A stretch of DNA of 64,000 nt from positions 90,529 through 154,528 of the forward strand of contig CALVTR010000001.1 in the NCBI GenBank assembly GCA_944362965.1, read 5' to 3'. Position numbers and translations under genes: made by a program. The notes below the pieces were generated by a model. The model was not told the DNA's origin. It searched no databases and saw only the letters and a program-made list of their open reading frames with translations. Source of the stretch: an uncultured Clostridia bacterium (GTDB lineage: Bacteria; Bacillota; Clostridia; Christensenellales; UBA1242). Below, piece by piece: positions 1,550-60,150 of the stretch. The first letter of the stretch is position 1. Each line of letters starts with the position of its first letter.

Positions 1550-1861
1550 TTACTCATGCCCGCCACATTCATAATCATAGGCATCACTTGATGGTTTAGA
1601 TTCATAAAGAACAGCCTTGTTTACCGATGTCCAAATGTAATTTCCACAACAAGAAGTTCTGAACATTGCAGAATCACTTTCACTATCACTCCATGATTCA
1701 ATGGTATGCAAAACGTCATGTCCATTTTCTTCAAGCACTGCATAACGAAGTGTATAGTTTGTGTCCCATAAATCCATATTACCGCAGGCAGTTAAACCTG
1801 CCATTGAAGCAAGAGTCAAAGCACTTGCAAGTGTGATTGTTGCTATCTTCTTTTTTATCAT
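1550..1861 (-). CDS. small lipoprotein, unknown function
   Basis: Signal peptide ending in the lipobox LTAC (MIKKKIATITLASALTLASMAGLTAC). Confidence 0.6.
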   Translation of the reverse strand: MIKKKIATITLASALTLASMAGLTACGNMDLWDTNYTLRYAVLEENGHDVLHTIESWSDSESDSAMFRTSCCGNYIWTSVNKAVLYESKPSSDAYDYECGGHE

Positions 1862-8475: not shown

Positions 8476-10395
8476 TTATACAATCGCAGTCCAATCTCGT
8501 TTATAATAAGTAGAACTTCCTAAATACTCTAAAGCATTCACAGGAATTGACGAAGCTTGAACAGTTGTTGAAGCGTAACCATTGCCTGACACCCTCCAAT
8601 TACATGTTGTATTTAGTGTTATCGTTTCAAGCCCTGTTACACTTTGGAAAGCATAGTAGCCTATAAATGTAACGCTTTCTGGGATTACTAGAGAAGTTAC
8701 AGCAAATCCACAATAATAAAAGGCAAGTCTACCTATACCTGTCACATTTGAAGATAGTTCTATCGTGATATTATCAAGCCCTGCGAAAGCACCAATTTCA
8801 ATATACGTGATTATACTATAAAGATAGCTTCCTTCGGTTATTGTTGTATTATCTGTTGCACGTATTAAAGCCATATCTTCAAGTCTAATTAAGCAGTTCA
8901 GTTCATTACCATCACTATCTCGACTTGTAAAGTATTGATTTTCAGGGTCTACATATATAGTTTTGATATTTTGGCACCCTGAAAATGCATATTCACTAGT
9001 AATATCATTAACATTTTTCCCTATATGGATGTTGCTAATAGATATGTTATTATAGTATTTATCATGACTATCTTCTTCAAGATATGATCTAAATAAATTT
9101 GGTATAGTTTCAACACTATCACCAAAAATGAAATTTGTTATAGTAGAGCCACTAAAAGTAGCAATGGTTGTTCCATCATACAAATAATTAAGACTCGCAT
9201 TTTTTGCATTATAATAAATTGTGTTTACACTTAAATCACTAAAAGCCTTGTGACCTATCCTTTCTACATTTGCACCTATAGTCAATTCTTCAAGATTGTC
9301 GCAAGCACAGAAAGCATATCCATCTATATCTGTCACGCTATCTGGAATTGTTATATTTGTTAAACTACTGCAATAATAGAAAGCATAATTACCTATACTT
9401 GTCACACTGTCTGGAATTACTATACTTGTTAAACTATCGCAACCAGAGAAAGCACGATCTCCTATACTTGTCACACTAAAAGTATAAGGTGATACTTCTG
9501 AGTTATAGGTTTCTGTTGGTATTTTTAATCCAATCACACTTGTATCACAGCCTGTAACACTTGCTGTGCCATCTGTGCCATCTTCGTTATAAGAATATGT
9601 TAAATAATTATCTGGCTCTTCAAATATTGCATAATAGGTTGCGGCAGAAGTATCGTCATATGTAAATTCATAATCAAAACTTGTTGATACAAGCTCTCCT
9701 GTTTCACTACCTGCTCTCCAACCTAAGAAAGCTGCTCCGTCAACGTCTGTAAAGTTGGCTGAAAGTGCAACTTGCTGCCCTATTTCTACTACTCCACCAC
9801 CTGTTGCTGTGCCTAGTGTTTCATTAGTCGATATCGCTGTCACTGATAGTGCTTCTTTTATTGTGATAACTATTTCTCCTAAATCTATGCTGTCAGAGTT
9901 TGGTGCCATGATTGTCAGCTCAAGTGTGCCGTCTGCTTGCGTAGTTGCAGGGTCAAATTCTTTAAAATCGTCACCATCTGAATCGGTTAAGTCATTCACA
10001 CCAATAATTCCGCTATGCCTTTCTGACACGCCGTCATTTGTAAGGGAGCTCAAGTCTACGTCCGCTATTTGCCAATAACTATCCGTTGCATTGATTATAT
10101 CAAAATACAAGGTAAAAGAGCCGTGACCATTCTCTTCTGTGTTTAAAGACGTTAAATCCATATTAAAGTTTCCGTTTATGTAACCCGGTGTAAAACTATC
10201 AACAACTATCTCTTCTCCGCCCGCTTCTTGATACCTGACTTCTTTAACATACAAGCTCTTGTCTGGAACTACAAAACTTAAACTTCCTTGCATGCTTATC
10301 TGTTGCTGCGTCGCTGCATATACCCCAAGTATCAATACACCAAGCATAAGCATAAATAACGAAATACATGATATTAGTTTTAATTTTAATGACAT
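8476..10395 (-). CDS. secreted/surface BspA-type leucine-rich-repeat protein (locus 1)
   Basis: The likely start is the MSLKLKL Met at 10395, preceded by AAGGAGAG; the 26 codons upstream run through the leader and are rejected. N-terminal K-rich and hydrophobic signal. The C-terminal half has ~23-aa repeats (SLTSIVIPDSVTSIGNYAFYYC). Confidence 0.85.
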   Translation of the reverse strand: MSLKLKLISCISLFMLMLGVLILGVYAATQQQISMQGSLSFVVPDKSLYVKEVRYQEAGGEEIVVDSFTPGYINGNFNMDLTSLNTEENGHGSFTLYFDIINATDSYWQIADVDLSSLTNDGVSERHSGIIGVNDLTDSDGDDFKEFDPATTQADGTLELTIMAPNSDSIDLGEIVITIKEALSVTAISTNETLGTATGGGVVEIGQQVALSANFTDVDGAAFLGWRAGSETGELVSTSFDYEFTYDDTSAATYYAIFEEPDNYLTYSYNEDGTDGTASVTGCDTSVIGLKIPTETYNSEVSPYTFSVTSIGDRAFSGCDSLTSIVIPDSVTSIGNYAFYYCSSLTNITIPDSVTDIDGYAFCACDNLEELTIGANVERIGHKAFSDLSVNTIYYNAKNASLNYLYDGTTIATFSGSTITNFIFGDSVETIPNLFRSYLEEDSHDKYYNNISISNIHIGKNVNDITSEYAFSGCQNIKTIYVDPENQYFTSRDSDGNELNCLIRLEDMALIRATDNTTITEGSYLYSIITYIEIGAFAGLDNITIELSSNVTGIGRLAFYYCGFAVTSLVIPESVTFIGYYAFQSVTGLETITLNTTCNWRVSGNGYASTTVQASSIPVNALEYLGSSTYYKRDWTAIV

Positions 10396-10435
10396 AACAC
10401 ACTCTCCTTTTTTTGCGAGCAAGCTTCGCCTAAGC

Positions 10436-10539
10436 GAGAAGGCATAAAGGCTGATAAGCCTTTCAGAAGGCAAAAGCTTTTGCCTTGTTGTGCATTTTGG
10501 AAAAATGCACGTGCCTTCTCACACTCGCGGCGAAGCCGC
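10436..10539 (-). promoter_or_regulatory. structured 5' leader of locus 1 (four-way junction plus GC hairpin)
   Basis: Outer stem GAGAAGGCA/TGCCTTCTC (10436-10444 / 10512-10520) encloses three hairpins at 10446-10463, 10467-10486 and 10490-10510. A GCGGC-GAA-GCCGC hairpin follows at 10527-10539. Confidence 0.55.
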
Positions 10540-10581
10540 TCGCTCGCGATAGCCGCTTGACGCGTCTATCTTTATGCTATT

Positions 10582-10609
10582 AGTATACCCCCCCCGCAAC
10601 CCACGTCAA
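10582..10609 (-). promoter_or_regulatory. promoter P1 with a G8 tract in the spacer
   Basis: Minus strand reads TTGACG (10604-10609), TGGGTTGC, G8 (10588-10595), then TATACT (10582-10587), giving a 16-nt spacer. An A/T-rich UP-like region lies upstream. Confidence 0.65.
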
Positions 10610-10707
10610 GCAAATTTAACAAATTTTTTAAATTTTTTTGAAAAATTTTGTGCCTTAGGCACTTTTTATCGTGTGACTTGTCTATAATGCCGAGTTTATC
10701 TGTTCCA

Positions 10708-10826
10708 AGAGAGCGGTGATAAAGTTTATTTTTGAAACAACCTAATCTGACAATCGTCAAACATTTGGTTTGCGGACAGTGATGCAAACTAAGTTTGCCG
10801 GATAGTCGTCGAACATTTGGTTCGGT
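10708..10826 (-). repeat. copy of the hairpin-repeat family, inverted relative to the 21.4-21.8 kb array
   Basis: 10774-10821 matches the reverse complement of 21494-21541 at about 45/48 nt. Contains two AAAC/GAAC-CAAAT-GTTT/GTTC-GACG hairpin units. Confidence 0.7.
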
Positions 10827-19979: not shown

Positions 19980-21196
19980 TTATTCAACAATAGCCCGCCA
20001 ATATCTATTGTAATAAGTATCTGTTAAATAAGTCAATGCATTTGTTTGAACTTCTGAAGCCGTTGACGTTGCTATAATTGATGAATCTGAGAAAGAACTG
20101 CTACTTGCTATTTCCCAGTTATATGGCGTATTGAATGTTATTGCTGTGAGTCTACCGCAACCATAGAAAGCTTCCCTACCTATACTTGTCACACTGTCTG
20201 GGATTGTTATACTTGTTAAACTACTGCAACCTCGGAAAGCACCTTCAAGTATACTTGTCACTCCTTCTGGGATTGTTATACTTGTTAAACTAGAGCAATT
20301 TTGGAAAGTAAAACTACCTATACTTGTCACTCCTTCTGGAATTACTATACTTGTTAAACTAGAGCAATTTTGGAAAGTAAAACTACCTATACTTGTCACT
20401 CCTTCTGGAATTACTATACTTGTTAAACTATCGCAACCAGAGAAAGCACGATCACACTAAATTCGTAAGGTGAACGAGAAGTTCTATATATTGTTGACGG
20501 GGTTACTAATTCTCCTGTTGCACTTGTATTACAATCTGATACTCTTGCTGTGCCTGGTGAAGTTGTATAACTATATTTTAAATTACTATTTGCTGTTTCA
20601 AATATTGCATAATAGGTTGTTGGTGAATTCTCTGTGAAGGTGAAATTATAGTCTGTAAGAGTTGATACAAGCTCTAGTATAGGAGATCGTGCTTTCTCTG
20701 GTTGCGATAGTTTAACAAGTATAGTAATTCCAGAAGGAGTGACAAGTATAGGGTCAAATTCTTTAAAGCCGTCTTCATCTGCGTCGGTTAGGTCATTCAC
20801 GCCAATTATCCCGCCATGTCTTTCTGACACACCATCATTTGCAAGAGCTCCTAAATCTACACTTTCTATTGACCACAGAATATCCGTTGCATTGATTATA
20901 TCAAAATACAAGATAAAAGAACCGTGACCATTCTCTTCTGTCTCTAAAGACGTTAAGTCCATATTAAAGTTTCCATTTATGTAACCCGGTGTGAAGCTAT
21001 CAACAACAATCTCTTCACCACCCGCTTCTTGATACCTGACTTCTTTAACAAACAAGCTTCTATCAGGCACGACAAAGCTTAAATTGCCTTGTATGCTTAT
21101 ATGCTGTTGCGTCGCTGCATATACCCCAAGTATCAACGCCCCTAGCATAAGCATAAATAATGAAATTGTGGATATCAATTTTACTTTTAATGACAT
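19980..21196 (-). pseudogene. rearranged BspA-type LRR surface protein paralog (locus 2)
   Basis: The N-terminal 150 aa are near-identical to locus 1. After KEFDP, about 85 codons are replaced by an antisense LRR unit. A 13-nt deletion at the FSV/DRAFSG junction causes a frameshift and stop at 20423. The LRR C-terminus continues in ORF 19980-20399. Confidence 0.8.
20386..20752. repeat. perfect 68-bp inverted repeat flanking a 231-bp segment
   Basis: 20386-20453 is the exact reverse complement of 20685-20752, checked base by base. Both arms encode one LRR unit (DRAFSGCDSLTSIVIPEGVTSIG). Confidence 0.9.
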
Positions 21197-21354
21197 AAAT
21201 CTCTCCTTAACGCAAAAATTTTATTTTTATTTTGTTTAATCACTGCTGTTTTTATGCAAATTTCGACCTTACTTGCATATCTTAGCCACATTTTAGCATT
21301 TTTGCAATCCCTTTGTCTCAAGGGTGACGGCACGATGCCGTCAAATCACGACCC

Positions 21355-21780
21355 GAATTTTCGAACCATATGTTCGACGATTGTTCGATTAAGAGTGTCT
21401 AAGTTTTAAACTACATCTCCGCTCTCTAAGCCTAACGCTTGGCGGTTATACGGCAGAGTGAGAATAAGAGATAAGCTATGTCTCCGCTCTTAAGCCAAAT
21501 GTTTGACGGCTGTCCGGCAAACTTAGTTTGCATCACTGTCCGATAAAGTGAATATAAGAAACAAACTTTATCTCCGCTCTCTAAGCCTAACGCTTGGCGA
21601 CTATCCGGCAGAGTAAGTTGAAAAAATAAACTTTGTCGCCGCTCTCAAACCTTACGTTTGACGATCGTCCGCGAGCCAGATGCTCGGCGTTTGTCCGGCA
21701 GAGTGACATAAAAGAATAGTCTTTATTCCCGCTCTCTTTAACCATATGTTCGACGGCTGTCTATGTGAGCGAGCTTTGTC
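21355..21780 (+). repeat. tandem array with alternating 65/90-bp units
   Basis: Unit heads T(C/T)(T/G/C)CCGCTCT at 21416, 21481, 21571, 21636 and 21726, giving spacings of 65, 90, 65 and 90. Each unit carries a 4-5 bp hairpin with a 5-nt loop followed by G(G/A)CG. Confidence 0.8.
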
Positions 21781-21788
21781 GCAGATAT

Positions 21789-21874
21789 GAGAAGGCATAA
21801 AGGCTGACAAGCCTTTTGGAAGGCAAAAAGTTTTTGCCTTCTTGTGCATTTTGAAAAAATGCACATGCCTTCTC
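21789..21874 (-). promoter_or_regulatory. locus 2 copy of the four-way-junction leader
   Basis: About 90% identical to 10436-10520, with the same outer stem GAGAAGGCA/TGCCTTCTC and three hairpins. Here about 590 bp of repeats separate it from the gene. Confidence 0.55.
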
Positions 21875-21928
21875 ACACTCGCGGCGAAGCCGCTCGCGAT
21901 GGACATAGTATGTCCATCTTTTGCTATT

Positions 21929-21956
21929 AGTATACCCCCCCCGCAACCCTTGTCAA
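21929..21956 (-). promoter_or_regulatory. promoter P2 with a G8 tract in the spacer
   Basis: Minus strand reads TTGACA (21951-21956), AGGGTTGC, G8 (21935-21942), then TATACT (21929-21934), giving a 16-nt spacer. Confidence 0.6.
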
Positions 21957-22112
21957 CAAATTTTAAGCATTTTTTTAAAAAATTTTTATTTTTTTTGTGG
22001 ATTTGTCTTATATTGATAAATTTTCCCTATCTCCACTTTATATGAATATCTTTTCATATAACTATAATTCCATTGTATACTCCCTTTCTTTTTCATTACA
22101 GCTTATAATTTG

Positions 22113-39880: not shown

Positions 39881-40861
39881 CTAAGCCACTTCACCTATAT
39901 CTATAGTGACATTTTTTGTTATTTTACAAGTCAATATACTTTCATCGTCTGCTGTCGATGTTTCTATCTCATCATTTTCAACAGCGTGAGCAGTGATGTC
40001 GTAATCTACTTCGTCTGATGGCGTGACAATAGCCGTTGCATTTGTTGATGAAGCCGTGCTTGGGGATGAAGAAGCTTGCACATATGAAAGATATCCAATA
40101 ATCGCAGTGCCATTTGCATAAACAGTATATGAGTGAACATATCTACGTGGCTCTACGGAACTAGAATTTTCTTCCTGAGTTGAAACTTCATCTTGGAAAG
40201 GATTAGAAGCAAGTGTGAGATATAAATTAGAGCTTACATAAACTTCTGCACTGCCTTTTTCTTCAATAGTATAATACATTGAACTTCCTAAATCAGTTTT
40301 GAAACAAATCTCAATATCGCTCCTATAATTATTTATAGTAACCTTATACATAGTCGTTTCTGACAATTCTATGAAAATATTATTTAAGCTTATTGTTGTT
40401 GAGCTTGTTGCTTGAATATTAATATATATTGTGCCAGAAACCCCATCATATGTTGCTACTTCAGAAATTGGAACACCATCACCAGCTATTGTTCCGCTGA
40501 CGGTTAATGTTGCATTTGATATGTTAGATTGACTGCTTGCACTGTATGCTGTTGTGGTTGTATTGACAACATCTATTGCAACAGTTACTTTCCCACTATC
40601 TGTTAAAACTGTGCCGATATCAAGATCAAAGCTGTCTTGAACAAAGCCTGGAAAGAAATTTCCCATAGTCTGACCATCTGTCATGTCGGTGGATATCCTT
40701 ATGTCTTTTACATACAACGTTGAACCTTCTATATTAAATTGCACATTTCCTTTTAAATTTATGGTTATGTTACCAGTTACAGCCAAAACTCCCACCAAAA
40801 GCATACTAAATACTAACACAAAAGCTGAAATCATAGATACTAATTTTACTTTTAAACTCAT
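39881..40861 (-). CDS. secreted surface protein paralog without LRRs (locus 3)
   Basis: The N-terminal MSLKVKLVSMISAFVLVFSMLLVGVLAVTG and the following beta-rich domain (LYVKDIRIS...FFPGFV) are homologous to loci 1 and 2. The C-terminal part is Ser/Thr-rich. Confidence 0.8.
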   Translation of the reverse strand: MSLKVKLVSMISAFVLVFSMLLVGVLAVTGNITINLKGNVQFNIEGSTLYVKDIRISTDMTDGQTMGNFFPGFVQDSFDLDIGTVLTDSGKVTVAIDVVNTTTTAYSASSQSNISNATLTVSGTIAGDGVPISEVATYDGVSGTIYINIQATSSTTISLNNIFIELSETTMYKVTINNYRSDIEICFKTDLGSSMYYTIEEKGSAEVYVSSNLYLTLASNPFQDEVSTQEENSSSVEPRRYVHSYTVYANGTAIIGYLSYVQASSSPSTASSTNATAIVTPSDEVDYDITAHAVENDEIETSTADDESILTCKITKNVTIDIGEVA

Positions 40862-40926
40862 CTTTTCACTCCTTTTCTTTTTTATTTTTAGTTAAAGCTT
40901 TGTGAACATAGCTACGTGCTTTGCCC

Positions 40927-41032
40927 GTGCCTTAAGAAAACGTGCGAATTTTTAATTCGCACAGGCTGCAAATATTTGCAGCCTAAGAAACTCATTCGAG
41001 TTTCTGTTTTCTTAAGGCGCGGCCAAAGCCGC
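40927..41032 (-). promoter_or_regulatory. structured 5' leader of locus 3 (four-way junction plus GC hairpin)
   Basis: A 15-bp outer stem (40927-40941 / 41006-41020, one T-G pair) encloses hairpins at 40942-40962, 40963-40984 and 40986-41005, with 0-1 nt linkers. A GCGGC-CAAA-GCCGC hairpin lies at 41019-41032. Confidence 0.6.
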
Positions 41033-41076
41033 AGCCTATCCATTAAGAATAGAATATTATATCTTAATTCTCTTCT

Positions 41077-41103
41077 ATTATACCCCCCCGCAACCCACGT
41101 CAA
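41077..41103 (-). promoter_or_regulatory. promoter P3 with a G7 tract in the spacer
   Basis: Minus strand reads TTGACG (41098-41103), TGGGTTGC, G7 (41083-41089), then TATAAT (41077-41082), giving a 15-nt spacer. The upstream ~35 nt are identical to P1. Confidence 0.65.
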
Positions 41104-41349
41104 GCAAATTTAACAAATTTTTAAAAATTTTTTAAATTTTTTTATATTTTTTTATATTTTTTATTATTTTTATTATTTTTATTATTTGTATTATTAAAAA
41201 ATATTATACTCGATTTATATATCAAAAATCCAAATTAAACAAACATGGGTGCAAATAAAAAATATTACAAAGACATTTCATTGTGCTTTCTGTGTTTAAA
41301 AAAACCCAAAATTCTTGCTTTCTATAAACTTTTATACGCAAAGTTGACA

Positions 41350-41378: not shown

Positions 41379-43388
41379 TTAATTATCATTAAGAACAATG
41401 GCATTTCTTCTATCAATGTCGTAGAAGATTTTATCAACCTCAAGTTTTTTAGAAATTCCCATAGGTTCAGGAGCTGATGACTTAACCATACATTTAGTTG
41501 CATAGAACGGTGTCATGGTGTCCATCATGATTTCCTTTCTGAATATCTTTGCAACAACCGTCCATTGTTTAAGCTGTCTTAATTGTTGTTTATCAAGCAG
41601 CGGTCTGCGTGTTCGCTGAACAGAAGTCGAGATATTTTCTCCAGAATCTGATTCTTTTGTATTACGCGACCTATTCTCTTCTTCGTGGAATACCGTTGTT
41701 TCACCGCAGGCTTCTGAGAAGGCTTGAATAGTTGACGGGTCTTCTGAGCCTAAGAACACTTCCATCTGGAAGTTACCACGAATGTTTTGAGCTTCATCAG
41801 CACCATACTTAATATCAAGTTGTTTATATGATTGAAGAACTATTTCAAAGAACACGTTTCTTGAACGAGCAACTGTAACCATAGTTCCAAACTTAGGAAC
41901 AGGTGGCATATTACCAAACTCATCAAGAATGAAATATACAGGACGTTTAAGTTTTCCTGTCTTGCCATTCTTAGGATTTACTGTTCTGTTTGCGACATCG
42001 ACAAGCACCTTATAGAGCTGACTTATACAAAGCACGCCTAGTGGGTGACGTTCAGTTTTGTGGTCTGGAATACGAATGAAGAATGCTGTTGGACGTTCTG
42101 GGATATCTTCAAAATCAATATCCGTTCCGCTTGTCATATAGAAGATACCTTCGTCGCCGAGCATATTACCAATAGAAGAGCCAAGTGTTGAAATAAATGA
42201 CCTTTGTGTAACAGGGCTGGCAAGACAAACTGTTGACATAAGGTCATGCACGGTGCTAAGTCTTGGGTCTCTGCCTTCGCTATATTTTGTCAAAGTTTTA
42301 AGAGCATTTTCTCTATCACCCGCAGGATCACGGCGCATACAAATCTTATATAGATTATAGAAATTAAATTTGTCAAGAGTCATGCCCAGTCTCGGGTCGC
42401 GGCTATCTTCAAGCATACCTTCCATAATACCAAGAATAAAGTCACGACAACCATCAGGCCACATCTTATCTTTGGCATTAGGATCATCTGGAATAAGAGA
42501 AAGCGAAATGTTTTTTAAGTTAGATTTTGCTTCATCTTCAAGTTGAACACGTCTTGCTTCAAGTTCCTGTTGAAGGATGTCGTTATTTGGGAAAGCTTTT
42601 CCTTCAAAACCAAACCAAGTGTCGCCATAGGTTGCTCCACCAATTTGATCTGGCGAAAATCTTTTATAGCCCATCTCTTCAGGGGTTGCATTGCTTATCT
42701 TCTTTACTTCTTTTGCAAGATTTCCTGCTCTTTCATAAGTTTTATAAGCAATTTCCATAGGATTCCAACGTGATGACGCATAAGGATTTTCAAGGTTTAG
42801 AACGATAATATTATAGCCTTCTTCTCTTAAAGCGTTTGCATTATCGGCGTAAAGTTCGCCCTTAGGGTCAGTCATAACAAGGCTAGGCTTTTGCCCAGTG
42901 TGAGCAAGTATTCTAATTGTTGGATTTGCGAAAATCTGTGTCTTACCAGTACCAGTAGTACCTAAAACCAATGCGTGAGTTTCAGGTTTCATATTGACTT
43001 CATAATGCCCGCCAACTTCCTTATTTCTAAAAACAAAGCCTGTTTTCTTAAGCGATGGAAGATTGTTCCATGTTGAAAAGATAAGGTCTGGGTCAGTGCG
43101 TAATCTTTCAGTTGTGATAAATTTAGAGTCAAAGTTGATATCAGTCTTTTCGCCTTCAGCCGTAGTTCCAACATTAGAGCCCATACCTTTTTTCTCTTTT
43201 GATAAGAGCGCTGTGCATAGTCCTGCAATAACGCCTATCGCAAGCATAGCAAGTGATATAACATTGACAAGTGCATCCGTTATCTCTCTTGTGCCTTCTT
43301 GGGTAAAATAAGAAATTGCAACACCAATTCCATAACCAAGAATGCCAAATACCAACATTAAAATGACACTAAGCTTGAATTTCTTCAT
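41379..43388 (-). CDS. VirD4/TraG-type type IV coupling protein (membrane-anchored P-loop ATPase)
   Basis: Two N-terminal TM helices, Walker A LGTTGTGKTQ, the DPKGEL motif and Walker B YFILDEFGNM. Confidence 0.85.
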   Translation of the reverse strand: MKKFKLSVILMLVFGILGYGIGVAISYFTQEGTREITDALVNVISLAMLAIGVIAGLCTALLSKEKKGMGSNVGTTAEGEKTDINFDSKFITTERLRTDPDLIFSTWNNLPSLKKTGFVFRNKEVGGHYEVNMKPETHALVLGTTGTGKTQIFANPTIRILAHTGQKPSLVMTDPKGELYADNANALREEGYNIIVLNLENPYASSRWNPMEIAYKTYERAGNLAKEVKKISNATPEEMGYKRFSPDQIGGATYGDTWFGFEGKAFPNNDILQQELEARRVQLEDEAKSNLKNISLSLIPDDPNAKDKMWPDGCRDFILGIMEGMLEDSRDPRLGMTLDKFNFYNLYKICMRRDPAGDRENALKTLTKYSEGRDPRLSTVHDLMSTVCLASPVTQRSFISTLGSSIGNMLGDEGIFYMTSGTDIDFEDIPERPTAFFIRIPDHKTERHPLGVLCISQLYKVLVDVANRTVNPKNGKTGKLKRPVYFILDEFGNMPPVPKFGTMVTVARSRNVFFEIVLQSYKQLDIKYGADEAQNIRGNFQMEVFLGSEDPSTIQAFSEACGETTVFHEEENRSRNTKESDSGENISTSVQRTRRPLLDKQQLRQLKQWTVVAKIFRKEIMMDTMTPFYATKCMVKSSAPEPMGISKKLEVDKIFYDIDRRNAIVLNDN

Positions 43389-55874: not shown

Positions 55875-56363
55875 TTATTTCTCCATTTTATCAATGTCTT
55901 GTGGAGTTGTATTCTCTTTAGACGATAGATGAAGTTTTGAAATAAATTCATTTTTATGATTTATTATATAAAATACATTAAACAAACAAATTGCTTCAGT
56001 AATAAGCATAATTAGAATAAAACAAATAAAAGGCAAGATGCTATAAATTAGTTCAAACTTCCAATCAATTGTATATTCGGGAAGAGGTGTATTATAATCA
56101 ACTGAAAGAACAAAGAGTACAATAAACATTATAATTGCAATAACAACATTCAATAACTCTAAAATATTATTATTCTTTAAAAATATATTAAGTATTAGAA
56201 AAATTACAGAAATACATAATATAGTTATAAATAATATATCTGTGTTTGCAATTTCCCCGAAATACAATGAATAACCATTAGTTACAATAACAGTGATTAA
56301 GATATCTATAAGAGCAACGACTGATATAATGCTAAACAGAATATAATTCAATTTATTTTTCAT
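55875..56363 (-). CDS. polytopic membrane protein
   Basis: 162 aa with about five hydrophobic helices; very AT-rich coding sequence. Confidence 0.55.
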   Translation of the reverse strand: MKNKLNYILFSIISVVALIDILITVIVTNGYSLYFGEIANTDILFITILCISVIFLILNIFLKNNNILELLNVVIAIIMFIVLFVLSVDYNTPLPEYTIDWKFELIYSILPFICFILIMLITEAICLFNVFYIINHKNEFISKLHLSSKENTTPQDIDKMEK

Positions 56364-56408
56364 AAACTAATGATAATATATTGGCAATATTTTGTCAACG
56401 GAAAATTT

Positions 56409-56960
56409 TTATTCATCCAGCTTATTTATCTTGTCCTGTAAATGTTTGCGGCGTTTTTCTTTCCAAGATTGCCTAAATTGAGTAAAATCTATGCGTGGGA
56501 AATTTTTATTTTTTATATCAACAATGACTTGAACTGCAACAAAAACAAAAGCCATAAATAAGAATATTGTTGCAAATAATTGAGTCAACATAAAAGTTGT
56601 TAATTCATTATTTGAAAAAATTTCATTCCAACTTAACGACATTTTGCTTAAGTAAAAAGTAAAGTCATCAATTGTGTATGTTAAAGATAAAATAAAACTT
56701 ATAATAAGAAATATCAAAGATGCAACCTTTAATAATATTAGCCATGAAAAATTTTTATGTTTTGTAAAATAAAAACATATTACACAATACATAATAGTTG
56801 CAAGCAACAAAAACACAAACATAAAAATCAATCGTAATAAATCACTTCCGGTAATACCATATTTTATAAAATAATCCACATGGTATGAAAGTAAACCTAT
56901 AGAAACGATTAAAAACACGCATGTTGTAATTAGAAATGTTTGATTTATATATTTTTTCAT
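56409..56960 (-). CDS. polytopic membrane protein
   Basis: 183 aa with about five hydrophobic helices and a basic C-terminal tail. Confidence 0.55.
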   Translation of the reverse strand: MKKYINQTFLITTCVFLIVSIGLLSYHVDYFIKYGITGSDLLRLIFMFVFLLLATIMYCVICFYFTKHKNFSWLILLKVASLIFLIISFILSLTYTIDDFTFYLSKMSLSWNEIFSNNELTTFMLTQLFATIFLFMAFVFVAVQVIVDIKNKNFPRIDFTQFRQSWKEKRRKHLQDKINKLDE

Positions 56961-57005
56961 AAAACCTCTTATTTTATTTTAATAAATAATTAGTTTATAT
57001 GTCAA

Positions 57006-59696
57006 CTAAATACAAATATTTAAAGAATTGTTGTAAATATGTTTATCTATATTATTTATAATCAATAACGGATTGTTTAGATTATCTAAAAAAACAACGG
57101 ATGCTTGATTACTAAAATCACCGTCTATTTTTATTACTAAACTATTATTTGTTTCTTCAACTGTAACATTGAATGTTTGGTTACTTGCATCTTTAAAACT
57201 GTCATATTCTGTTTTATTTTTAGAGAAACATTTAACTATATAATTAACATTAGAGTTGTTGCCATTTAATATAGAATCTTGTAAAAACTGTTGACAAAAG
57301 ATTATATCTTCATTGTCTAACTGAAACGACAATGTTATATTTAATCTCTCAAGCATGTCTTTATAGTAATTTATATTATTTAAAGCATATATATTTGATA
57401 ACTTTAATGAATCTATAAAACTATCATTGATTTGTGGTATCCCTGCAGCAAATATAAAACTATCAACTAACGTTTGATAAATTTCTTCTGTTACGTTATC
57501 AGTATCTATAGCATCTCCATTAGATGCATTACCATTTGTTAGATATTGAGTTACATCAATATTTGGTAGATTGCATAGAAATATATTCAGCAAACCTATT
57601 TCTCCAAGTGGGTCTGTATATAAAACTGGTATTTGTGCTTGAACACTTCCATATTCATGAACAAACCTTGTAGATGAAGAACTACTAGTATAATTTAATG
57701 TTTTACTATTTCCACAATAAGCATTATTTGGCATAAGTATATTAAAACAAATTGTATTATTTGAGAAAAAAGTGTTTATAGGATACGCAATAGTCCTTTC
57801 ATAATTTTCTATTGTTGCATCATTTTTTGTTAATACACTTTTAATTTCAAATAGAGCAATTTGTGGATTTGCTTGTCCTATTTGAGATTTATCTAAAAGA
57901 CTAGAAAATACAAGTTTTTTGAGATTTATCCCAATATCACTATTTTGCTGATTATTTTCAAAACCAATTTTAATAATTTTATTAAAACTAGTCTTTCTTT
58001 CCTGTATATTTTGATAACTTATAGCTATATTACTTCTTATAGATTTATTGGCTTTAACTGAGTTATTCCTTCTAAAATGATTTTCATTAAGTTGATAAAC
58101 TGCTAATAGTTCAAAGTTAAGATTTTGATAAGAAGAACCTGTAATCATATATCTTTTATCATTTTCCTCATCATAAACCAAGCTACCTATTTCATACATT
58201 TCTTCTGGATGGTAATGCTTTTTTATAATAGTCAAATCACTTTTTCCCATTGACTGTAAATATTTGTGAAGATATTTATAATATTTAAAAGCATCAAGTT
58301 GACTATCTACTTGGTTATAAATAGTTTGATATTCAGTATTCCCTAACTCTAATTTGGGGTTAATAAAAGGTTCAAACTCTATATAATACCAATAAGAATA
58401 ATCTTTACGTCCATCAGTTCCATTAGAAGCATAATAATAATTTTTAATATATAAAAAATCATCCCCTTCTGCATAATGGTATAACTCAGTCATACTTTCC
58501 TTTTCATCATCTGTCAAAACGAGATATTGTTGGTCTTCATAACAAAATTTTTCCAATCCATCACTAATTACAGCACCTACTTTGTATTCATCTGGTAATA
58601 AATTATAATTTTCATATCTTAACCTAATTTTTAATATTTTTATCTTATTTATCTTCTTTATAGGGCATGGAAACTTAATACCCCAACCGCTATCTGGCGT
58701 ATCAGCTGCAGTTGTATCTCTTTGTGTTGAATTAAGTTCAGGTGCTGCCCAAAAGTTTTGAGAAGGAAACGCAAGATTAGAACCCGTCACAAGATTTTCT
58801 ACGTTGCTGACAACGCCTGTGGCGAAGTTTGATAGACTTGATTTATAAGTTACATTTTGTGCGTTTGCGGTGATATCTGATAAGTTAAGAACAGGTTTAT
58901 CAAAACCGTCTTGGCGAAGAAATTTAAGTATATACTCATCTCTGTCTAGGTTGCGAGGCAGGTCAGTTTCTGTGTCCATGTCAAAAAACATGCATGGTGT
59001 TCTTCCTGTGCTTTTGTCATACTTAAACAAAATGGTATACAAATCAGGTTCGGTGAATGAGTCACTGTCAAAAGGTATATTCTTTAAAAAGTCCTTATCA
59101 AGAATTTTTATTCTATTAAACCAAGACTTATTGTTATGCGGATTGTATCCTTCGTCATAGTTATCGCAGTTCGCAGGTGTAACCTTTAAAAAACGCTCTA
59201 GAGCGGTCAAATGATTATAAGGCTCTTTAATATATGTTACAGTGTTTCCTGAGCCATCTGTGACTGTTTTTGACGTCTGATTAGTATAGGCTAAAGTTTC
59301 GCCAACAACAAATCGCATACGTTCTATAGGCTCAAGTAATGACAGTTTAACAAGCCAATATGATTTATCTTTACTCTGAGCCATTTGAAAGTCGCCGATA
59401 ACATATTGACTATGATTTAGTGGCAATCCGTTTTCATCATAGGTCGCCACCATATTGTCACCTTTATGAAAGTGCAATATTCTTGCCCACTGCATGTGTT
59501 TTATATTAGGCTTTGCGGAACTTCGCCACTTAAAGTTTAAGCTTGCATCATCAGTTGTTTCATCTTGAACAAATGTTTCACCAAAGCCAATTTGTGGTGC
59601 AAGCAAACTCGACCACTGCCCTGTATCTCTGTCGAAAAACTGAAATTTGCAAAGCCAGTCTTGTGTATTTTTACCCTCTGTTGTAGACATACTCAT
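57006..59696 (-). CDS. large phage tail structural protein
   Basis: About 896 aa, the largest protein of the module, positioned after the putative tail proteins. The start is taken at MSMSTTEG after GGGGGAGAG. Confidence 0.55.
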   Translation of the reverse strand: MSMSTTEGKNTQDWLCKFQFFDRDTGQWSSLLAPQIGFGETFVQDETTDDASLNFKWRSSAKPNIKHMQWARILHFHKGDNMVATYDENGLPLNHSQYVIGDFQMAQSKDKSYWLVKLSLLEPIERMRFVVGETLAYTNQTSKTVTDGSGNTVTYIKEPYNHLTALERFLKVTPANCDNYDEGYNPHNNKSWFNRIKILDKDFLKNIPFDSDSFTEPDLYTILFKYDKSTGRTPCMFFDMDTETDLPRNLDRDEYILKFLRQDGFDKPVLNLSDITANAQNVTYKSSLSNFATGVVSNVENLVTGSNLAFPSQNFWAAPELNSTQRDTTAADTPDSGWGIKFPCPIKKINKIKILKIRLRYENYNLLPDEYKVGAVISDGLEKFCYEDQQYLVLTDDEKESMTELYHYAEGDDFLYIKNYYYASNGTDGRKDYSYWYYIEFEPFINPKLELGNTEYQTIYNQVDSQLDAFKYYKYLHKYLQSMGKSDLTIIKKHYHPEEMYEIGSLVYDEENDKRYMITGSSYQNLNFELLAVYQLNENHFRRNNSVKANKSIRSNIAISYQNIQERKTSFNKIIKIGFENNQQNSDIGINLKKLVFSSLLDKSQIGQANPQIALFEIKSVLTKNDATIENYERTIAYPINTFFSNNTICFNILMPNNAYCGNSKTLNYTSSSSSTRFVHEYGSVQAQIPVLYTDPLGEIGLLNIFLCNLPNIDVTQYLTNGNASNGDAIDTDNVTEEIYQTLVDSFIFAAGIPQINDSFIDSLKLSNIYALNNINYYKDMLERLNITLSFQLDNEDIIFCQQFLQDSILNGNNSNVNYIVKCFSKNKTEYDSFKDASNQTFNVTVEETNNSLVIKIDGDFSNQASVVFLDNLNNPLLIINNIDKHIYNNSLNICI

Positions 59697-60150
59697 CTCT
59701 CCCCCATTTACCTTTTTGTATCGTGTAACCATATAAGTCTAAACTGCCAGCAAGAACAAGGCTATTATCACGCTCATTTGCTTCCGCAGCTTCCTGTCTA
59801 AGCTCGGCAATTCTATTCTGTATAGCTGAAATTATAGACGTTATGGCTTGAGTTGCTATTCCAAGAATTGCTCCTGTTATTGCTCCTGCCCCAGCACCTG
59901 TGATTATAGCTTTACCTAAGCTTACAACAGGTGACAAATTAAAGCCTATTTGAGATGACACTTGGCTTATCATTTGCCCTGAAAGTTGTCCAATAAGCTT
60001 GCCTGTTGCTTCTTCAAAACCGCTTTTCTTACCTTTGTTTTGCTGACCTATGCTGTTTAGTGAAGTTGTGCCTTCTTGAATGTTTGTCTGTCTTAAAACA
60101 CCATCTTCTGTGTTGTCAACAAAAGAGATAGTATAGTATTTCTGTTGCAT
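59671..60150 (-). CDS. phage protein with a Gly/Ala-rich hydrophobic core
   Basis: 159 aa. The segment GKAIITGAGAGAITGAILGIATQAITSIISAI resembles tape-measure or internal-protein segments, but the protein is far too short for a canonical tape measure. Confidence 0.45.
   Translation of the reverse strand: MQQKYYTISFVDNTEDGVLRQTNIQEGTTSLNSIGQQNKGKKSGFEEATGKLIGQLSGQMISQVSSQIGFNLSPVVSLGKAIITGAGAGAITGAILGIATQAITSIISAIQNRIAELRQEAAEANERDNSLVLAGSLDLYGYTIQKGKWGRDEYVYNRG

Follow-up and report, generated by a model that had tools for sequence, protein, structure and literature searches.

Slippage-based switches of gene expression are known mainly from pathogens. In Mycoplasma hyorhinis, every vlp gene has a poly-A tract within its promoter spacer, and these homopolymers confer independent ON/OFF states, resulting in combinatorial expression and combinatorial cell surfaces. 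Poly-G tracts are found between the -35 and -10 boxes of Treponema pallidum tp0126 and Neisseria meningitidis porA, an experimentally established arrangement with an optimum of 17 nt (PMC7864442), and the length of these tracts varies both between and within isolates (PMC7864442). In the T. pallidum tpr genes (tprE, G, J, F, I and L), the poly-G tract instead lies just upstream of the transcription start (PMC7864442); it comprises 7–11 G, with lengths of up to 8 G being permissive, and its length varies in vivo (PMC7864442). In Streptococcus pyogenes M28, a 1-nt indel in an intergenic homopolymer at Spy1336/R28-Spy1337 is reported to alter the transcript level of a surface-protein gene (PMC7098570). 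Phase variation in gut commensals has been described mainly in terms of invertible promoters and methylation. The Clostridia cases cited in a review, which also cites the Vlp system, are invertible promoters (PMC11868660). The literature searched contained no account of a Clostridia promoter with a homopolymer in its spacer.

Here, we analyzed a 64,000-nt stretch of DNA (the window) from an uncultured gut bacterium. It is chromosomal DNA of a sporulating Firmicute, carrying spoIIGA-sigE-sigG, hrcA-grpE-dnaK, spoVE/ftsW, a gene for a SipL-domain protein, and veg. An initial annotation of the window had described three minus-strand promoter modules of ~65 bp with G8, G8 and G7 tracts and spacers of 16, 16 and 15 nt, and all of these coordinates, sequences and lengths were reproduced. 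Copy 1 (10582–10640) consists of an UP region with phased A-tracts (10610–10640), a TTGACG -35 box (10609–10604), a 16-nt spacer read directly as TGGGTTGC plus G8 (tract at 10588–10595, C8 on the plus strand), and a TATACT -10 box (10587–10582). Copy 2 (21929–21990, including its UP region) has TTGACA at 21956–21951, a directly read 16-nt spacer of AGGGTTGC plus G8 (21935–21942), and TATACT at 21934–21929. Copy 3 (41077–41140), whose UP region has A-tracts phased at 10 bp, combines TTGACG (41103–41098), a directly read 15-nt spacer of TGGGTTGC plus G7 (41083–41089, the most polymorphic of the three tracts), and TATAAT (41082–41077). The layout is the same in all three copies: UP region, TTGAC(G/A), (T/A)GGGTTGC, G7–8 and TATA(C/A)T. 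A 20-nt core, TTGACNNGGGTTGCGGGGGG, occurs three times in the window, as compared with 0.02 occurrences expected from shuffled sequences. In the window, which has ~35% GC, no G/C run of at least 7 nt and no G run of at least 6 nt occurs outside the three tracts.

The hexamers of the three modules match the sigma-70-type consensus at 10–11 of 12 positions, and copies 1 and 2 are among the best sigma-70-like sites of their own regions in a consensus scan that accepts spacers of 16–18 nt. The hexamers of copy 3 were read directly because its 15-nt spacer falls outside that range. Upstream of each -35 box, the A-tracts are phased at ~10 bp (TRF period 10), as they are in UP elements and bent DNA. 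The original reading of these elements as promoters holds: both hexamers are near-consensus for sigma-A, and related MSLK genes in relatives of this species are preceded by plain TTGACA/T-17-TATAAT promoters.

All three copies place a homopolymer between recognizable -35 and -10 hexamers (TTGACR, 8 nt plus G7–8, TATAMT). They resemble porA and tp0126 in having ~7–11 G within the sigma-70-type spacer of a surface-protein promoter, and in a tract length that would set the spacing around the 17-nt optimum. They differ in that the host is an uncultured, spore-forming, low-GC gut Firmicute rather than a Gram-negative or spirochaete pathogen, in that the tract abuts the -10 box, and in that the same cassette stands at 13 or more genes (see below). 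The tpr genes are likewise paralogous surface-protein genes, each with a promoter poly-G, although the tpr tract adjoins the transcription start and does not separate clear -35 and -10 boxes, and a CRP-like regulator cooperates in that system (PMC7864442). The M28 locus offers a Firmicute precedent for a homopolymer effect; it is reported, however, as a T tract at a single locus and is not described as a family-wide -35/-10 spacer (PMC7098570).

As had been proposed, each of the three modules lies upstream of an MSLK(V/L)KL gene. All three genes open with MSLK(L/V)KL followed by a hydrophobic helix. Gene 1 (8476–10395, minus strand) encodes a 639-aa MSLKLKL protein with a signal/anchor helix, a beta-sandwich domain and, at its end, LRR_5 repeats of the BspA type identified by profile search. 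The gene 2 paralogue (19980–21196, minus strand) is broken into two ORFs, a 257-aa MSLKVKL ORF (20423–21196) and a 139-aa LRR_5 fragment (19980–20399), and its orthologue in metagenome assembly ERZ1090861 is intact at 616 aa. The difference between the split and intact forms lies within a tandem array of 69-nt repeats (a 23-aa LRR unit) at 20176–20438, suggesting recombination among LRR repeats as the origin of the split. Gene 3 (39881–40861, minus strand) encodes a 326-aa MSLKVKL protein with a predicted N-terminal helix and beta-sandwich, and no Pfam domain was matched in it. A 669-aa TraG/VirD4-type coupling protein gene (41379–43388) stands alone between recO and the copy 3 cassette, in a neighborhood that otherwise consists of housekeeping and sporulation genes. 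Elsewhere in the window, GC content falls to 24% at 56001–58000, which covers the 3′ end of a 908-aa ORF (57006–59732) and the ORFs preceding it.

BspA-type LRR_5 repeats occur in many family members beside the N-terminal signal/anchor helix and beta-sandwich domain, and the proteins are presumably located at the cell surface. An AlphaFold model places the beta-sandwich at residues 30–170 with moderate confidence, the remainder being disordered. No Pfam or NCBIfam family matched this N-terminal domain. A Foldseek search against the PDB gave no match at E ≤ 1e-3; among the 50 matches listed there was a weak resemblance to Gram-positive pilins and adhesins, and no TasA. The label "camelysin-signal" attached to these proteins by the initial annotation is not supported: no TasA, camelysin or SipW match was obtained in Pfam or NCBIfam (E ≤ 0.01), including the Peptidase_M73/TasA and SipW-cognate signal models, and no fold match was obtained either. 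The resemblance to camelysin presumably extends to the first residues, MSLK.KL, only.

The extent of the family was assessed by scanning metagenomes with a pattern that stops short of the G tract, which leaves the search unbiased with respect to tract length. The scan returned 13 modules, all in assembly ERZ1090861 and at similar coverage, three of which are orthologues of the window loci (98–99.6% identity). The family thus comprises at least 13 cassettes per genome, a lower bound and a scale that the initial annotation did not contain. Every module with readable 3′ sequence is followed by an MSLK gene. Conversely, every MSLK gene in the window and the module-selected loci (193 kb) is preceded by a module at a distance of 61–1035 nt, the window's three being the only MSLK genes sampled without regard to the module. 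Throughout these 193 kb of the species, all G/C runs of at least 6 nt lie inside modules. Conservation is confined to approximately -65 to -7, with 82–86% pairwise identity as compared with 29–46% on the flanks, and the paralogues show mosaic combinations of promoter and leader subtypes, which suggests gene conversion.

The tracts of the 13 ERZ1090861 paralogues are G8 in seven cases, making 16 nt the modal spacer, G7 in one, G9 followed by A in one, and GGAGGGGG, TGGGGGGG, GAGGGGG and GCGGGGG in the others. The latter four are interrupted, "locked" tracts that nevertheless keep a spacing of 15–16 nt, and the G run is therefore not indispensable. At locus L018 (1311–3832), all that follows a G8 promoter and a cloverleaf leader is a 78-aa C-terminal LRR remnant, which makes this a decayed family member whose tract is still intact. 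Near the contig end, ORF translations resemble rRNA antisense artefacts, suggesting an rRNA gene there. When GTDB species representatives were scanned for the module, the result was two chance matches only, on GC-rich contigs from Spirochaetaceae and Alphaproteobacteria. The scanned representatives thus lack the species, or at least its poly-G promoter.

The genes lie 170–730 nt downstream of the modules, behind very stable structured leaders that had not been noted previously. Each leader begins, a few nt past the presumed transcription start, with a 5′ hairpin, followed by a predicted cloverleaf in which a closing stem of 25–30 bp encloses three hairpins of 8–12 bp; the Shine-Dalgarno region is unpaired in the predicted fold. 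On the minus strand, the copy 1 leader (10396–10575, ~170 nt) has its 5′ hairpin at 10548–10570 and its cloverleaf at 10415–10543, with a minimum free energy of -83 kcal/mol (z -6.4) and a compensatory hairpin variant in other strains. The copy 3 leader (40862–41071, ~210 nt; hairpin 41042–41068, cloverleaf 40904–41041) reaches -89.9 kcal/mol (z -11.8) and shares the architecture of copy 1 with a different sequence. The copy 2 leader is longer (21197–21923, ~730 nt; hairpin 21898–21918, cloverleaf 21765–21897) and contains 4–5 GC-rich tandem units of 65–90 nt at 21358–21761. The cloverleaf architecture is alike in almost all paralogues (L006–L018) while the sequences differ, and in L009 the order of the hairpins is permuted.

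At the gathering threshold, Rfam identified only a tRNA-Val in the window and no leader family, and at E ≤ 1 there was no match in the copy 1 and copy 2 leaders. RNAalifold recovered the outer stems of the cloverleaf only, as divergence or permutation of the inner hairpins prevents their alignment; in the outer stems, 10 of 22 pairs carry compensatory changes. The cloverleaf leader is a separate lead, a candidate for a new class of structured RNA. The GC-rich units of 65–90 nt (e.g., ...CCGGACAGCCGTCAAACATTTGGC...) vary in number in the long leaders, which extend up to ~1 kb. One unit is found inverted upstream of the copy 1 promoter (10773–10820), and similar units occur in two other contigs (L056 and L058, see below) and in intergenic DNA of related species. 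Judging by their sequence arrangement, the units look like a REP/BOX-like modular element. Pneumococcal BOX and REP-like repeats are modular GC-rich hairpin units that occur in variable number and order in 5′ untranslated regions. The likeness, which was compared by description and applies to the leaders only, lies in the modular, very stable GC-rich structures; unlike BOX, the cloverleaf keeps a constant layout and goes with a single gene family, and it has no Rfam match.

In its family-wide layout, the system resembles the tpr genes and also the Vlp system. The Vlp family and the one described here are both surface multigene families with a highly conserved 5′ cassette (promoter, leader and signal peptide), in which each copy has its own spacer homopolymer. 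However, the homopolymer is poly-G here and poly-A in vlp, the vlp genes lack a long structured leader, and the Vlp lipoproteins are encoded in one locus, whereas the genes described here are dispersed along the chromosome (three in 31 kb of the window and the others on separate contigs).

Hypermutable tracts are expected to differ in length between closely related strains, a check that the initial annotation had proposed. Corresponding loci were collected from ~15 independent samples via exact copies of the SigG, Veg, FtsW, MurA, TraG and MSLK proteins, and the outcome was positive: locus 3 occurs with G7, G8, G9 and G9+AG, and loci 1 and 2 have other alleles of altered spacer length. These alleles were read from consensus metagenome assemblies, some at 3–4x coverage, in which G homopolymers are error-prone. 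At locus 3, G7 was found in the window, L034 and L037; G8 in L032, L036 and L039; G9 in L029; and G9+AG in L033 (eight samples in all), while a further allele in L035 is doubtful, being located at a contig end. Tract length differs within single SNP haplotypes, namely between G7 of the window and L037 and G9 of L029, and again between L033 and L034. Across 22,428 bp aligned between the window and the ERZ28615321 contigs, three positions are mismatched, and the one indel is the G7/G9 difference at locus 3. AT-rich, microsatellite-like repeats (9-nt and TTA units) are located upstream of the copy 3 UP region at 41161–41196, and a 9-nt unit, AAATAATAA, is missing upstream of locus 3 in one strain.

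At locus 2, the window strain has G8 and L015 has GCGGGGG; L044 and L045, from two samples whose assemblies name their contigs differently, have GGGTTGGGGGG, a 4-nt-shorter allele with a 12-nt spacer. Locus 1 has G8 in six of seven samples and the same 4-nt-shorter allele in L019. The short allele is located at ~2598–2615 of L019 and at ~3100–3120 of L044 and L045. Since L019 and L045 come from the same sample, the short allele is present there at two paralogous promoters, and a second sample has it at one of the two, which suggests movement between paralogous promoters by gene conversion; gene conversion between promoters and recurrent deletion are both possible. The alleles of loci 1 and 2 are not steps of one G but a 4-nt deletion that includes a C, and a substitution plus a deletion. 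As a control, A/T runs of 7–8 nt were scored in the same alignments. Length variants were observed in 3 of 3 G tracts as compared with 3 of 34 A/T runs (hypergeometric p ~0.003). Thus, the tract is more polymorphic than the surrounding sequence between close strains. Locus 1 is mostly invariant, and its G8 in six samples means that the tract is not visibly unstable everywhere.

The promoters of related species were also compared. In a sister species whose sigE-sigG region is 80% identical at the nucleotide level, an MSLKVKL LRR gene occupies the syntenic position, and its promoter in seven samples is TTGACA-17 nt-TATAAT, with neither a G tract nor a GC-rich leader. Two further relatives also have 17-nt spacers before MSLK genes. 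These spacers hold palindromes, ATTAGGCATTGCCTAAC and TACGAGAAATTCTCGTA (L040, ~1675–1760, reverse strand; L057, 1400–1500), beside which lies a divergent XRE/HTH_3 regulator gene. This arrangement points to repressor-operator control in relatives at the position where the window species has its G tract.

Two other contigs, retrieved by protein similarity alone, retain the G run. In L058, from a species ~72% identical at the nucleotide level in a Mur ligase gene, the promoter is TTGACA-AAAAAGGC-G8-AG-TAAACT. In L056, whose kinship to the window species is not established, it is TTGACA-AAAAAAGC-G7-TAGAAT. In both, GC plus the G run (G7 in L056, G8 in L058) is preserved beside the -10 box, and A's have taken the place of the spacer's 5′ half. 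Retention of this uninterrupted GC+G7–8 block, with the rest of the spacer replaced, argues for selection on the run itself.

We favor, with a probability of roughly 60%, the reading that these are sigma-A promoters in which a hypermutable G tract would set a spacer of 15–17 nt and thereby cause phase or volume variation of a surface-protein family. The module would be a strong sigma-A promoter, with a bent, A-tract-rich UP region and near-consensus TTGACR and TATAMT boxes. An unbroken G run immediately 5′ of the -10 box would set the distance between the two, such that G7, G8 and G9 would give spacers of 15, 16 and 17 nt. A spacer of 17 nt is the general optimum. Slipped-strand mispairing of the run at replication would add or remove G's, and the promoter would be weak with G7, intermediate with G8 and at full strength with G9, with 19-nt or 12-nt spacer alleles being off. 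By analogy with the characterized poly-G promoters, expression presumably depends on tract length; on the other hand, G8 with its 16-nt spacer may already be fully functional, and 1-nt changes may therefore matter little.

From the position of the boxes, RNA polymerase would be expected to use these hexamers, and the transcript would start a few nt past the -10 box, carrying the 5′ hairpin and cloverleaf and leaving the ribosome-binding site free. The hairpin and cloverleaf probably stabilize the mRNA, by analogy with 5′ stem-loop stabilizers. Each family member would be graded or switched ON/OFF independently, and switching is presumably reversible and of high frequency. Because each of at least 13 paralogues has its own copy of the module, many combinations of surface proteins would be possible, as in a contingency-locus system.

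A more conservative account is that an ordinary strong constitutive promoter was copied together with the gene's 5′ end as the family expanded and was homogenized by gene conversion, the G run being an inherited passenger without a regulatory role and its length variation either neutral or an assembly or sequencing artefact. We consider this rather unlikely but worth serious attention, since gene conversion would fit both the high identity of the promoters relative to their flanks and the promoter/leader mosaics. A neutral homopolymer, however, should have decayed in a genome of 35% GC in which 193 kb hold no other G run of at least 6 nt, and G7–8 persists at ~28% nucleotide divergence even though neighboring spacer bases have changed. 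The constancy of G8 at locus 1 throughout six samples and the tolerance of interrupted tracts in 4 of 13 copies would be expected of a passenger, and the low coverage of some contigs would be compatible with assembly error; yet the same lengths recur across independent samples and sources (ENA assemblies and Logan contigs), and A/T runs of equal length are stable in the same contigs. Alternatively, the GC+G7–8 block might bind a regulator or act as a rigid G/C stretch that adjusts promoter melting, in which case control would be deterministic and length variants would represent damage, not a switch. This explanation, which we think improbable, draws on the fact that all three lineages share GC plus G7–8 as the retained portion of the spacer. 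In addition, relatives without the G tract have a palindromic operator at the same spacer position together with a divergent XRE-type gene, which would make the spacer a regulatory site in the clade. A binding site has no need of a homopolymer, though, interrupted and length-variant alleles are frequent, and the modules of the window have no regulator gene associated with them.

Least plausible, and in our judgment very improbable, is that the promoters belong to another sigma factor, with GGGTAT as a sigma-B/sigma-F-like -10 element, or are switched by DNA inversion as in Clostridioides difficile and Bacteroides. The sigma-F -10 pattern, a loose one, is GGnnAnAHTR, and on direct reading GGGTATACTA and GGGTATAATA fit it; locus 1 also lies just downstream of sigG. 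The sigma-B/sigma-F reading was nevertheless rejected, because direct reading revealed no matching -35 motif at the required distance, while the boxes are canonical for sigma-A and relatives have plain sigma-A promoters. An invertible promoter was rejected as well: no inverted repeats flank the promoter other than low-complexity A/T ones, and the orientation is the same in all of the more than 30 contigs. A G-quadruplex was dropped from consideration, as direct reading gives three G3 runs only.

Slipped-strand control by a poly-G spacer, the reading favored here, belongs to a classical class of mechanism; what is new is the host lineage, the scale (at least 13 dispersed cassettes), and the coupling to an unannotated structured leader. 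A broader proposal is that a gut Clostridia commensal employs combinatorial slippage phase variation over at least 13 dispersed surface genes by means of a portable cassette (UP element, poly-G sigma-A promoter, hairpin and cloverleaf) that has replaced the repressor-operator control seen in some relatives and spreads among paralogues by gene conversion. We advance this version tentatively, as a possibility with an appreciable but limited chance of being correct in full. The cassette itself constitutes a compact natural set of parts, a strong promoter and a stabilizing leader. If slippage does control these genes, the contingency strategy of Neisseria, Treponema and Mycoplasma would extend to an uncultured, spore-forming gut Firmicute, and tract length at each locus would be a marker, directly readable from metagenomes, of the organism's surface state from host to host.
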